Sequence record: PZ379184.1
Strand: one strand, 5' to 3'
Source: a phage
DNA length: 39,711 nt
Below are positions 13,224 to 39,711 of the stretch, in pieces (position 1 is the first letter of the stretch; the number at the start of each line of letters is the position of its first letter). A program made the position numbers and the translations under genes. A model generated the notes under the pieces. That model was not told where the DNA came from, did no database searches, and was given only the letters and a program-made list of their open reading frames with translations.

Positions 13224-13261
13224 GACTCAAGGTCATTCACATCGAGTGGCCTTTATGATTA
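13224..13261 (+). promoter_or_regulatory. RNase III processing site candidate (R4.7-like)
   Basis: AGACTCAAGGTCATTCACATCGAGTGGCCTTTATGATTA; copy of the element at 6125 and 36548. Confidence 0.65.
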
Positions 13262-13281
13262 GACTAAACGGAGGATTAACC

Positions 13282-15297
13282 ATGTTTGACCTTAAGAGTA
13301 TCTGGGGTTCTGACATAGAGACCAACGGTCTCCTTGATACAGTATCCCAGTTTCACTGTGGGGTCCTGATTAACGCCGAGTCGAATGAGACCCTTAAGTA
13401 TGGGGTAGCTCCGATGGTCGGTATCGTCGGTGGCTTCAAAGAGTATGTACAGAAGGTGGAAGAGATTGCCGCATCACCTGATGGTATGCTGGTATTCCAC
13501 AACGGTATCAACTATGACGTCCCGGCTATTGACAAGCTGAAGCGTCTGTACTTTGGGAAACGCTTTAACTTCCCGAAACACAAGATGATTGATACCTTGG
13601 TGCTGGGACGCTTGATGTATCCAAACATTAAGTTCTCAGACATGGGCGCAGTGAAAGCTGGTCGTCTGCCACCTAAGATGATGGGACGCCAGTCTCTTGA
13701 GGCTTGGGGCTATCGTCTCGGTGAGATGAAAGGTGAGTACAAACACGATTACGTTGCCAAGTGCAAGGCTGAAGGTATCGAATATAAGGCTGGGGACGAA
13801 TGGTTGTTCCCATCTCAGGAGATGCTAGACTATAACGTTCAAGACGTTGTGGTCACACTGGCGTTGTTCAAGAAGTTCCTGACTGACAAGTATTACTTCC
13901 AGTCTGAACAGTTCGCTTTCGACCAGATTTATGCGTTGCGTCTGGAACATGATGCTGCGTGGACCTGTGCGAAGATGGAACGTAACGGCTATCCGATGAA
14001 CACCGAGATGGTCGAAGGCTTATATCGTGAACTCACCGTCAAACGTGCAGAGTTGTTGGACAAGCTGCGTTCGACTTTCGGTAGCTGGTATGCACCAAAG
14101 GGAGGCAAGGAGTTCTTCAAGCACCCACAGACAGGCAAGGACCTTCCGAAGTATCCGCAAGTCGTGTATCCTAAGGTCGGGTCAGTATTCAAGAAGCCGA
14201 AGAACAAAGCTCAACGATTAGGTCTGGAGCCTTGCGAGTTCGACTCACGAGACACGATGGAAGGAGCACCGTTCACACCTATCACTTACGTTGAGTTTAA
14301 TCCGGGAAGCGGAGACCACTTAGCGAAAGTCCTGATGGAGCGTGGCTGGGAGCCTGTGGACTTCACTGACACCGGGAAACCTGTAGTCGATGACGAGACG
14401 TTAGAACACGTTAAGTTACCAGACGAAGAGGCTCAGGCTTGCGTAGAGCTGGTCCGTGAGTATCTGGTAGTCCAGAAGCGCATCGGTCAGGCTGCTGAAG
14501 GTAAGAACGCATGGTTGAAACTTGTAGGTCCAGACGGACGTATGCACGGTTCAATCAACCCATGCGGGGCAGTAACCGGACGTGCGACTCATAGTTCACC
14601 AAACATGGCTCAGGTCCCTGCTAACGGTGCTCCGTATGGTGAGATTTGCCGTGGTGCTTTCGGTGCAGCTTGGAACAAGACGGATGGTAAGCCAGACCCT
14701 TGGATTCAAGTGGGCGTGGATGCCTCAGGTCTTGAGCTTCGTTGTCTGGGGAACCGAGCGGCCCCGTTTGATGGTGGAGCCTATGCGAAGACTGTGGTAG
14801 AAGGGGACATCCACTGGGCCAACGCAGTAAACGCTGGGTTAGCACCTAACGTCCCACGCGATAAGTCGAACCACGACCATGAGGCTTTCCGTAACAACGC
14901 TAAGACGTTCATCTATGCGTTCCTGTATGGTGCAGGGGCCGCTAAGATTGGACTGATAGTAGGTGGCGGTAAGAAGGAAGGTTCAGCTCTCATGAAGAAA
15001 TTCATTGAGGGTACACCAGCTATCAAGGATCTGCGAGAGGCTGTGAGTAATACGTTAATCTCAGACTCTAAGTGGGTGGATGGAGAGAACATCGTCAAGT
15101 GGAAACGCCGTTGGTTGCGTGGACTTGATGGTCGCCGTATCCACATCCGGTCGCCACACTCAGCACTGAACGCCTTACTTCAAGGCGATGGTGCGGTAGT
15201 CTGTAAGCACTGGATTGTCGAGACTGAACGTATGCTCGAAGAGGCAGGGTATGTTCACGGCTGGGAAGGTGACTTTGCGTACATGGCATGGGTGCAT
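13282..15297 (+). CDS. 5: DNA polymerase (T7 gp5 homolog), exon 1 (672 codons)
   Basis: Starts MFDLKSIWGSDIETNGLLD (T7 MIVSDIEANALLE) after SD GGAGGA; collinear with recalled T7 gp5 through FAYMAWVH, then an in-frame TAA at 15298. Confidence 0.9.
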
Positions 15298-15895
15298 TAA
15301 CATCATGGTGCACATTAAATCTGGTGAACTCGGTGAACTCCTAATGGGACAATACCGAGCCAAGCCATAGGGAGGATGTATGAGAGGCAAGAAGTTAATT
15401 CTTGAGGCCACTGAGACTGGCTGCATAATCCCTACGTCACATAAATTGAATCAGGATGGATACTTCCGAAAGAGGACTAACGGTGTCCTTGAGATGTATC
15501 ATAGAACTGTATGGATTAAAGCTAATGGTCCAATACCTGACGGTTTCGAAGTAGACCACAAGTGTCGTAATAGAGCTTGTTGCAACGTCGAACATCTACA
15601 AGTATTAGACCGGGACTCACACTTAGTCAAGACCAACAAAGAGCGATACGCTGCTAGGAAGCTAGAAGCACGAGACTACTGGGTAGAGACTGGGTGTACT
15701 GGAACGAAGTTAGCCGAAATATTCAATGTGTCGTTCTCAGCCGCCTGTGGGTGGATTAGAGAGTGGAAGGCGTAGAGACTATCCGAAAGGAGTAGGGCCG
15801 TGGGTGAGATTCCCACGTAACCCGAAGCGCCAGACAGTCACCTCAAAGACTGATGATATAGTCCGACACTTCCAGTAATGGGAGAATACAGAAAG
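15298..15895 (+). mobile_element. Group I self-splicing intron (598 bp) in the DNA polymerase gene, carrying an HNH homing endonuclease ORF
   Basis: Exon ends in T; intron ends in G; intron 5' GTGCA can pair with exon TGCAT (P1 with U-G wobble); R-like AGAGACTA (15775-15790) and S-like GATATAGTCC (15855-15864) elements; downstream exon restores the conserved DNAP C-terminus. Confidence 0.8.
15380..15775 (+). CDS. HNH homing endonuclease (131 aa), intron-encoded
   Basis: HNH motif HRTVWIKANGPIPDGFEVDHKCRNRACCNVEHL; SD GGGAGG before ATG; lies wholly inside the intron. Confidence 0.85.
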   Translation: MRGKKLILEATETGCIIPTSHKLNQDGYFRKRTNGVLEMYHRTVWIKANGPIPDGFEVDHKCRNRACCNVEHLQVLDRDSHLVKTNKERYAARKLEARDYWVETGCTGTKLAEIFNVSFSAACGWIREWKA

Positions 15896-16051
15896 GATGA
15901 GTTACAGATTGCTTGTCGTACTCAAGAAATAGCAGAACGTACAGTAGAAATTGCTCAACTTGCTATGCGTAAGGTGGGTGAGTTTTATAACTTTAAATGT
16001 GTCCTTGATACCGAAGGTAAGATTGGACCAACGTGGAAGGAGTGTCACTAA
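15896..16051 (+). CDS. 5: DNA polymerase (T7 gp5 homolog), exon 2 (51 codons)
   Basis: Encodes DELQIACRTQEIAERTVEIAQLAMRKVGEFYNFKCVLDTEGKIGPTWKECH, matching the recalled T7 gp5 C-terminus. Confidence 0.85.
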   Translation, partial: DELQIACRTQEIAERTVEIAQLAMRKVGEFYNFKCVLDTEGKIGPTWKECH

Positions 16052-16335
16052 TGGCTATTACTAAACGTATTCGTGTGAGTTTTGACCTGAAGATGGTTGT
16101 TAGCTCAAAGGAAGAAGAGACCGTGTGTCGCCAACTGGCTGAGATGACTAAAGCCTACGCTGAGGGTGAGAAGCTGGATGGTCTTCAGCTGGCTCTGGTC
16201 AAAGCAGCAATAGAGTCAGGCCCTGAGTCTGCCATTGAAATTGTCGCCAAGAAGACCATCAAGGAGGTGCTGGTAGCTGCCTTTGATGATTACACGTTCG
16301 GAGTATCCAACCTGCGATTCGAGGTCAAGCAATGA
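16051..16335 (+). CDS. 5.5: gp5.5-like protein (in T7, binds host H-NS)
   Basis: MAITKRIRVSFD resembles T7 MAMTKRFKVSFD; ATG overlaps the DNAP stop (TAATG). Confidence 0.7.
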   Translation: MAITKRIRVSFDLKMVVSSKEEETVCRQLAEMTKAYAEGEKLDGLQLALVKAAIESGPESAIEIVAKKTIKEVLVAAFDDYTFGVSNLRFEVKQ

Positions 16336-16541
16336 GTGAATACTTACGGGTCCTAGCGGCCCTTAAGTCCTGCCCGAAGACCTTCCAGTCCAACTATGTG
16401 CGCAACAACGCTGCACTTGTGGCTGAGGCTGCGAGTCGTGGACATCTAAGCTGCCTGTCTATGGATGGGCGTAACAACGGTGCGTGGGAGATTACCGCTG
16501 AAGGCACCAAGTTCCTAAATCAACACGGAGGCTGTCTATGA
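16332..16541 (+). CDS. 5.7: gp5.7 homolog (69 aa)
   Basis: LKSCPKTFQSNYVRNNAALVAEAASRGHLSCL...GAWEITAEGTKFL closely matches recalled T7 gp5.7. Confidence 0.85.
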   Translation: MSEYLRVLAALKSCPKTFQSNYVRNNAALVAEAASRGHLSCLSMDGRNNGAWEITAEGTKFLNQHGGCL

Positions 16542-16756
16542 ATCAAGACGTATCAGGACGAGAACTTAAGGTAGGACAGAAGGTTGCTTTCTGTCTGGCT
16601 GGAAAGTCATACGCAATGTGTATAGGCGAAGTAGTCCGGGTAATGCCTAAGACTGTAGCCATCAAGCACAAGACATTTATTCGCTGGAATGGAATGACCG
16701 AGGAGGTCGAAACGGTACGTGCCTTCTCTTCAGTTTGCATCGCTGAGGAGGCATAA
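16538..16756 (+). CDS. Hypothetical protein (72 aa) at the T7 gp5.9 position, not similar to gp5.9
   Basis: SD GGAGG before ATG; coupled to flanking genes. Confidence 0.6.
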   Translation: MNQDVSGRELKVGQKVAFCLAGKSYAMCIGEVVRVMPKTVAIKHKTFIRWNGMTEEVETVRAFSSVCIAEEA

Positions 16757-39545: not shown

Positions 39546-39608
39546 TCTCACAGTTCAAGAACCTCAAGTCTCCCCATAGGCCCTCTTTCAGTCCAGACAA
39601 AGGCCCTA
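39546..39608. repeat. Right copy of the terminal repeat, starting TCTCACAGT as in T7; only 63 bp of it present here
   Basis: 39558-39608 equals 1-51; TCTCACAGTTCA matches the recalled first bases of the T7 genome (TCTCACAGTGTA). Confidence 0.7.
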
Positions 39609-39711
39609 TGAAGCGGCGCACGAAAAACGCGAAAGCGTTTCACGATAAATGCGAAAACTTCATGCCACCTGTTGAGTAGTGAGGTTAAACACCCAACATG
39701 CAACTGAAATC
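39609..39711. other. 103 bp of unassigned sequence after the truncated terminal repeat, not found elsewhere in the window
   Basis: Identity to the left end stops at 39608; contains palindrome AAACGCGAAAGCGTTT. Confidence 0.5.

Follow-up and report, generated by a model that had tools for sequence, protein, structure and literature searches.

The interrupted DNA polymerase gene

The window analysed here, 39,711 bp of record PZ379184.1, is the essentially complete genome of a K1F-like coliphage (Autographiviridae, Studiervirinae, Kayfunavirus). Kayfunavirus genomes match its first 25 kb with 93-96% identity over 90-94% of the length, and in the region 14800-16400 the identity is 96% for K1F and 94.4% for CLB_P1. 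No record identical to the window was found in the phage collection searched. Non-phage sequence is present at the right end of the window, and the assembly is imperfect.

The product of gene 5 is a family A DNA polymerase, encoded in two pieces on the plus strand as join(13246..15297,15896..16051). Exon 1 (13246..15297, 684 codons) was delimited from the list of open reading frames, from tblastn comparison to relatives and from the Pfam profile DNA_pol_A, of which it covers positions 28-324 of 381. Its reading frame (13246..15300) has the C-terminus ...GDFAYMAWVH and then stops at the TAA in 15298-15300, with U15297 as the last base of the exon. Exon 2 (15896..16051, 51 codons plus stop) was found by tblastn and completes the Pfam profile to 381/381. 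It encodes the 51 aa DELQIACRTQEIAERTVEIAQLAMRKVGEFYNFKCVLDTEGKIGPTWKECH followed by a stop (DELQIACRT...GPTWKECH), is homologous to the C-terminus of T7-type polymerases and opens with the catalytic Asp-Glu of motif C (VH/DE); translation and homology thus agree with the 51 C-terminal codons from 15896 that had been proposed in the original prediction. In-silico removal of the 598 nt between the exons (15298-15895) fuses both frames into a protein of 735 aa, which spans positions 28-381 of the 381 in DNA_pol_A (123 bits), compared to 95 bits and an end at position 324 for exon 1 alone.

The insert boundaries are observed directly in an intron-less allele. Across the junction the Kayfunavirus ST1749 reads TGGGTGCAT immediately followed by GATGAATTGCAG, i.e. 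GTGCAT/GATGA, and the match is lost if either boundary is moved by one base, which makes the length of 598 nt unambiguous. The same allele bears out the original claim that the frame stops straight after FAYMAWVH, resumes at 15896 and rejoins exactly, and also the claim that the exon ends in U (U15297) and the insert in G (G15895, the terminal or omega-G). The insertion point lies between the His and the Asp of motif C (VH/DE). According to PMC3428280, the DNA polymerase introns of phages PhiI and W31 are located at E. coli Pol I position 881, which equals the His/Asp site found here. The original remark on such introns in T7-like phages was correct.

The first codon of the insert is the in-frame TAA, and its open reading frame is in another frame. 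An intein, already discounted in the original prediction on these two grounds, was rejected here as well, with HNH_3 as the only domain found. We likewise rejected a group II intron: within the window no Rfam match to group II introns, or to any other family besides the one described below, was obtained at E-values up to 0.1, and instead of a reverse transcriptase the open reading frame encodes an HNH protein of 131 aa. A translational bypass or frameshift site is no better candidate, as 598 nt far exceeds known bypass elements. Such other intervening elements have nothing in their favor beyond the interruption of an essential gene, and we consider them the most improbable of all the readings discussed in this work.

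Group I identity and fold of the insert RNA

When the insert was compared to Rfam at the gathering threshold, no match was reported. In E-value mode the whole window gave a sole match, Intron_gpI (RF00028) at 15288-15885 on the plus strand, with full coverage of the model (positions 1-253) and 35.8 bits vs. a gathering score of 50 (E-value 2.3e-7 in the local search, 1.1e-5 for the whole window). This is the covariance-model search that the original prediction had named as a check. We attribute the low score to the 396-nt open reading frame in P6a, to the absence of P2 and to a mis-aligned R element: the model alignment sets R 5’ of the open reading frame, which we judge to be wrong, the true R/P7 strand being located 3’ of its stop codon. 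This misplacement, too, is put down to the inserted reading frame and the lack of P2. Homologous introns of phage MQM1 (61 bits) and of Salmonella phage Arash (58.9 bits, without an open reading frame) exceed the gathering score.

A related insert was found in 71 phage records by blastn. We delimited 14 introns, every one of which is located at the same His/Asp codon boundary of a family A polymerase and carries a 3’-terminal G ahead of exon 2 (14/14). These 14 introns stem from Kayfunavirus, Teseptimavirus (13a, Sal_R1S), Teetrevirus (mtp4), the Aeromonas phages PT2 and MQM1, autographivirids of Edwardsiella and Klebsiella, kuraviruses (PE006, SU7, PAS59) and Vibrio phage Vp_R1.

For the analysis of the fold, 13 ORF-deleted intron cores were aligned with MAFFT, and the alignment was left unfitted to any structure, which avoids circularity. 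Our manual model comprises P1, P3, P4, P5, P6, P6a, P7 (forming a pseudoknot), P7.1, P7.2, P8 and P9 with a total of 55 pairs. It pairs 91.7% of 711 cells, compared to 37-46% after a shift of the 3’ partners by 1-3 columns. Double-sided (compensatory) changes occur in 23 pairs of the model vs. 4-10 after shifting, and the covariation score of 0.303 (0.044-0.081 shifted) was attained by none of 500 shuffles. Most of the cells that stay unpaired lie in P3’, P7.2 and P8 of the introns from kuraviruses and MQM1, where the MAFFT alignment is visibly off; in these helices they are therefore alignment errors, and the pair counts are conservative. RNAalifold independently yielded P1, P3, P4, P5, P7.1, P8 and P9, with compensatory changes in 19 pairs. 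The program also proposed a helix of GUCC (15861-15864) with the 3’ splice junction; it was rejected because it competes with the 3’ strand of P7, a pseudoknot that RNAalifold is unable to model. With Intron_gpI as the only Rfam match in the window and covariation in the 13 homologues, the fold of the insert goes beyond chance.

All helices are encoded on the plus strand, and every one is intact in the window’s own sequence. P1 (15292..15313) is formed by 15292-15299 (GUGCAU/UA, the slash marking the splice site) and the internal guide 15306-15313 (UGGUGCAC). The pairing between exon and 5’ part of the insert that had been predicted is found here, intron GUGCAC (15308-15313) facing exon GUGCAU (15292-15297) with a U·G pair at the splice site. 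This pair, U15297·G15308, is kept in 13/13 sequences, and the outermost pair of P1, G-C in 8 and A-U in 4 of the 13 aligned sequences, changes in step with the exon codon, which is GUG (Val) or AUG (Met). As read from the sequences, the P1 loop (CAUC, 15301-15304) could pair with exon 2 (GAUG, 15896-15899) to give a P10, and 13a, PT2 and the kuraviruses would allow a longer one of 6-7 bp. P3 pairs 15320-15326 (UCUGGUG) with 15828-15834 (CGCCAGA) and shows changes on both sides in 5 of its 7 pairs. P4 (15329-15334 / 15354-15359) encloses P5 (15339-15341 / 15347-15349); over both helices (15329..15359) 100% of the cells are paired, and compensatory changes are seen in 4 pairs. In P6 (15360-15361 / 15769-15770) a C-G pair is replaced by U-A in 4 sequences, and P6a (15365-15367 / 15764-15766) holds the HNH reading frame in its loop.

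P7 pairs 15777-15781 (GACUA) with 15859-15863 (UAGUC) and forms the pseudoknot with P3. Its two strands lie within the R-like (AGAGACTA) and S-like (GATATAGTCC) elements that had been recognized in the original prediction. P7 is complementary but invariant in 13/13 sequences and thus contributes no evidence from covariation, and the same is true for the invariant P7.1 (15782-15784 / 15789-15791). An invariant GUA linker (15792-15794) leads from P7.1 to P7.2 (15795-15797 and 15800-15804 / 15812-15816 and 15821-15823), the inner helix of which has 3 compensatory pairs. The hairpins P8 (CAGUC ... GACUG, 15835..15852) and P9 (CUUCC ... GGGAG, 15869..15884) both show double-sided changes in 4 of 5 pairs. 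P2 is absent from the intron of the window and present in some relatives (Edwardsiella and Klebsiella phages, MQM1). What sets subgroup IA2 apart is two more helices in the stretch from P7 to P3’, namely P7.1 and P7.2, joined through G-U-A (PMC3428280), and the presence of both helices with the invariant GUA assigns the intron to this subgroup.

The first reading to be weighed against these results does without splicing. The polymerase would be split into exon 1 (684 aa) and a separate protein of 57 aa, ‘gp5.4’, starting at an in-frame ATG (15878..16051), and the insert would be a free-standing HNH cassette. Some GenBank entries are in line with this: K1F AM084414 annotates gp5, gp5.3 and gp5.4, and two ‘DNA polymerase’ coding sequences are given in the records of CLB_P1 and Ro45lw. 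However, the polymerase is annotated as a two-piece join in K1F DQ111067, CLB_P1 and 13a. The ATG at 15878 is not preceded by a Shine-Dalgarno sequence and is located in the loop of P9, and the split would part the His from the Asp of motif C. Furthermore, distant phages have in common a group I fold with covariation in the non-coding flanks of about 200 nt, while the synonymous sites of the open reading frame are saturated; a plain gene cassette leaves this unexplained. We thus regard a split polymerase as very unlikely. With the exact gap to the ST1749 allele, the match to RF00028 and the covariation among homologues, the group I identity proposed in the original prediction is supported, and 15298..15895 (598 nt, plus strand) is, with high confidence, a mobile IA2 group I intron in gene 5 that encodes an HNH endonuclease.

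The HNH endonuclease encoded in P6a

The open reading frame in the P6a loop (15380..15775, plus strand) encodes 131 aa and is an orthologue of I-TslI and of K1F gp5.3, in agreement with the HNH endonuclease of this length named in the original prediction. It matches Pfam HNH_3 with E = 9.4e-16 (57.6 bits vs. a cut-off of 24.8), and the motif E-V-D-H-x-C-x-N-R-x-C-x-N-x-x-H-L is kept in 11 homologues. Aligned over the full length and without gaps, 104 of the 131 residues (79%) are identical to I-TslI of phage PhiI (AAV53690.1, E = 2e-82). Among the PDB sequences the HNH protein had no meaningful match; I-HmuI is undetectable by sequence. As described in PMC8136825, I-TslI is a nicking enzyme with a core site of 9 bp, and by analogy the protein of the window probably nicks its target as well.

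Compared to the homologues of CHRF_10037, 13a and mtp4 the gene shows dN/dS values of 0.06-0.17, which indicates that it is maintained by purifying selection; for more distant homologues the synonymous sites are saturated. The exact protein of the window is present on 16 independent public contigs, and K1F gp5.3 is a member of the same 90% cluster. Coding sequence and ribozyme are interlocked at the 3’ end of the gene, where the final codons (...W-K-A-stop) also supply both P6a and P6 with their 3’ strands. A Shine-Dalgarno-like GGGAGGA (15370..15376, plus strand) is located 4 nt 5’ of the start, and GGAGG is kept in the homologues. No phage promoter of the TAAACTATCACTATAGG type was found within the intron. 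Translation of the endonuclease must hence start at its own GGGAGGA and ATG either on gene 5 transcripts or on excised intron RNA.

These data also bear on whether the intron might be a decayed passenger, splicing poorly or carrying an inactive endonuclease, in a window derived from a defective or mis-assembled genome. The Rfam score below gathering and the non-phage sequence at the right end of the imperfect assembly could be taken in this sense. Yet the viable isolates K1F and CLB_P1 have exactly the ribozyme core of the window (15298-15379 and 15776-15895, 100% identity), in which all helices are preserved. The HNH reading frame is also undamaged, with its catalytic motif kept, a low dN/dS and the identical protein on the 16 contigs mentioned above. 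Decay is accordingly hard to reconcile with the data, and we give it very little credence.

Relatives of the intron, proposed splicing and mobility

The intron is the gene 5 intron of K1F and as such already known. In K1F (DQ111067 / AM084414), CLB_P1, Ro45lw and CHX131 it has the same insertion point as in the window, the same length of 598 nt and 99.2-99.7% nucleotide identity, rising to 100% in the ribozyme core, and the reading frame in the K1F intron differs from that of the window by five substitutions. PMC4925675 attributes a putative group I intron to K1F.

Beyond Kayfunavirus, to which the window belongs, the introns of the Teseptimavirus phages PhiI (AY769989) and W31 (AY769990) have in common with it the host gene, the site, the IA2 subgroup and the position of the open reading frame in P6a. 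Bonocora and Shub reportedly described the PhiI and W31 introns (2004, J Bacteriol 186:8153), which are said to self-splice in vitro and in vivo, and reportedly returned to them as group I introns with I-TslI (2009, Curr Biol 19:223). PhiI was linked to the window by way of the HNH protein cluster, and the intron of phage 13a served as proxy for the PhiI intron RNA; it is 80% identical to that of the window at the nucleotide level (about 20% divergence), and its HNH protein is 87% identical to I-TslI. PMC3428280 places the PhiI and W31 DNA polymerase introns in group I, subgroup IA2, with the open reading frame in P6a.

Group I introns with HNH nicking homing endonucleases in family A polymerase genes are also found in the Bacillus phages SPO1, SP82 and Bastille (I-HmuI, I-HmuII, I-BasI) and in cyanophage Pf-WMP3 (I-PfoP3I). 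The Pf-WMP3 intron resembles that of the window in belonging to IA2, in lacking P2 and in carrying its open reading frame in P6a (PMC3428280). In contrast to position 881 for the intron of the window, these four introns are inserted at Pol I position 674, and blastn detected no DNA similarity between them and the window’s intron.

A different arrangement is seen in T3/phiYeO3-12-like phages, where free-standing gp5.3 HNH proteins are encoded just 3’ of gene 5 (for example at 15843-16112 in Citrobacter phage SH2). They are 47-50% identical to residues 6-95 of the HNH protein of the window, but they are not embedded in an intron, have about 110 aa and lack its conserved C-terminal ...WIREWK tail, which in the window overlaps the 3’ strands of P6 and P6a. 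The presumed target of such free-standing enzymes is the same site in the polymerase gene (PMC3984707), and their position 3’ of gene 5 fits the scenario of ‘collaborative homing’ outlined there.

From homologues and literature a course of splicing can be proposed for the window. Gene 5 would be transcribed through the intron, and the RNA would adopt the core of P1 and P3-P9 with P7.1 and P7.2, lacking P2. Free guanosine would then attack 3’ of U15297, held in P1 by the U·G pair to the guide GUGCAC, and the freed end of exon 1 would in turn attack after G15895, joining CAU/GAU, restoring VH-DE and giving the polymerase of 735 aa. The spliced junction is expected to read GGGUGCAU directly followed by GAUGAGUUA. 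Unspliced RNA would give a protein of 684 aa that lacks the catalytic Asp. In a mixed infection the HNH enzyme, translated from its own Shine-Dalgarno sequence and ATG, may cut (probably nick) intron-less alleles near the insertion site, and repair off the intron-bearing genome would copy the intron together with a short stretch of flanking exon.

The exons next to the intron carry an apparent co-conversion footprint. Over the adjacent 200 nt of exon 1 the identity to K1F and CLB_P1 drops to 82-94%, compared to the near identity of the introns themselves. Downstream, positions +1 to +50 of exon 2 are identical in 5/5 genomes with the K1F-type intron (window, K1F, CLB_P1, Ro45lw, CHX131). The four intron-less genomes (ST1749, phiYIO1-1, YZ1, SH5) share another haplotype, which departs from the first at 16-18 positions from +6 to +54 and at -10. 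Further upstream, beyond about -28, the window is close to the intron-less ST1749 lineage (3 differences in 240 nt) and distant from the other intron-bearing genomes (20-32 differences). As the exon 1 backbone of the window is ST1749-like and not K1F-like, the window represents a new mosaic that carries a known element. The distribution is sporadic, as is typical of mobile introns: 14 of the 247 records that match the region contain the intron of the window at ≥95% identity.

Judged from these alignments, the haplotype pattern is as expected from homing in which the co-conversion tract is short on the upstream side and longer on the downstream side. A K1F-type intron may have been copied, together with only 10-27 nt of the exon upstream and no less than 54 nt of the exon downstream, into a polymerase gene whose upstream 240 nt are those of an ST1749-like and otherwise intron-less lineage. 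Ordinary phage recombination, with no endonuclease driving it, could in principle have produced the same exon mosaic. On a wider scale, the intron family occupies the identical His/Asp site in at least four unrelated groups (Studiervirinae, other Autographiviridae, Gordonclarkvirinae, Grimontviridae) and in Aeromonas phage MQM1, which points to repeated transfer between phage families. We lean slightly towards a footprint of recent homing in the window combined with such repeated cross-family transfer. If this is true, the haplotype linkage in the nine genomes would mark out a co-conversion tract of unequal arms and hence the polarity of repair started by an I-TslI-type nickase.

The scientific gain from one more copy of the characterised mobile intron family of PhiI, W31 and K1F is small. 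For annotation the case is of practical use, since in many deposited relatives, and with any automatic gene caller run on the window, the polymerase comes out too short and is accompanied by a false 57-aa fragment named ‘gp5.4’ or ‘DNA polymerase’; in several GenBank records 15878..16051 is mis-called as a separate ‘gp5.4’. The exon co-conversion haplotypes may be of interest to those who study the spread of homing endonucleases among therapeutic coliphages, as may the recurrence of an intron family at a single polymerase site in several phage families, though neither is biology of a new kind.

Polymerase genes split in annotation

The intron has left its mark on the annotation of related phages. 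An ORF of 57 aa (15878-16051) begins with an ATG in the P9 loop of the intron and continues in frame with exon 2. In the GenBank records of K1F (AM084414), CLB_P1, Ro45lw, PT2, PE006 and SU7 this ORF has been entered as a separate protein, named either 'gp5.4' or 'DNA polymerase', and in other GenBank relatives the polymerase is merely truncated. Both kinds of entry are mis-annotations that recur because of the intron.

A homologous intron in Salmonella phage Arash (L012, OQ632216) occupies positions 1049-1320, with a 3' core 74% identical to that of the window intron. As it lies between separately annotated CDSs, 'DNA polymerase nu' and 'DNA polymerase theta', Arash probably holds another unrecognised split polymerase gene. 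In Aeromonas phage MQM1 (L007, OQ628262; 434-1074), also a carrier of a homologous intron, the HNH ORF continues across the 5' strand of P7 and across P7.1 (...GCAGAGACTATCCGTAAGGAGTAG), which makes part of the catalytic core protein-coding as well. For the MQM1 polymerase gene the annotation lists three exons, meaning that a second intron lies upstream.

Other features and the right end of the window

Between gp5.7 and the exonuclease gene there is an ORF of 72 aa (16538-16756) that is missing in K1F and ST1749, where the comparison shows a 218-nt gap, and present in CLB_P1 under the name 'gp5.8'; it is a small accessory-gene indel. A motif search of the window for the phage-RNA-polymerase-type promoter core (CT)AAACTATCACTATAGG(G/A)A yielded eight copies (2787, 6104, 17750, 20589, 21577, 26362, 33635 and 38952), none of them inside the intron.

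Positions 39558-39608 are an exact copy of positions 1-51, and this copy is the start of a T7-type terminal repeat. The final 103 nt of the window (TGAAGCGGCGCACGAAAAACGCGAAAGCGTTTCACGATAAATGCGAAAAC...) had no match among the phage records searched; 100% matches to 39608-39660 were found in 40 E. coli genomes at scattered sites, in BW2952 at a trpB-lacZ / malF fusion joint. We take this sequence to be a phage Mu end of the type used in Mu-transposon library kits. Most likely it is a library or assembly artefact, which cuts off the right terminal repeat.

Exon mosaic and distant carriers of the intron

Comparison of the flanks 15058-15297 and 15896-15995 shows that gene 5 of the window is a mosaic: 5' of the intron it resembles the intron-less ST1749, and the intron and the initial ~55 nt of exon 2 resemble K1F and CLB_P1. 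At -10, +6 and +9, adjoining the insertion site, the polymorphisms follow the presence of the intron strictly across the nine genomes of the comparison.

The same intron family was found at the identical His|Asp polymerase site in Vibrio phages SJSY21 and Vp_R1 (L008/L016), in kuraviruses (L009/L013/L017) and in Edwardsiella/Klebsiella phages (L010/L011). Their introns carry orthologous HNH genes with 55-59% aa identity, and their host polymerases are merely 27-40% identical to that of the window in the region compared by tblastn. Taken together, the shared intron family, orthologous HNH, identical site and divergent polymerases point to transfer of this intron family across phage families.
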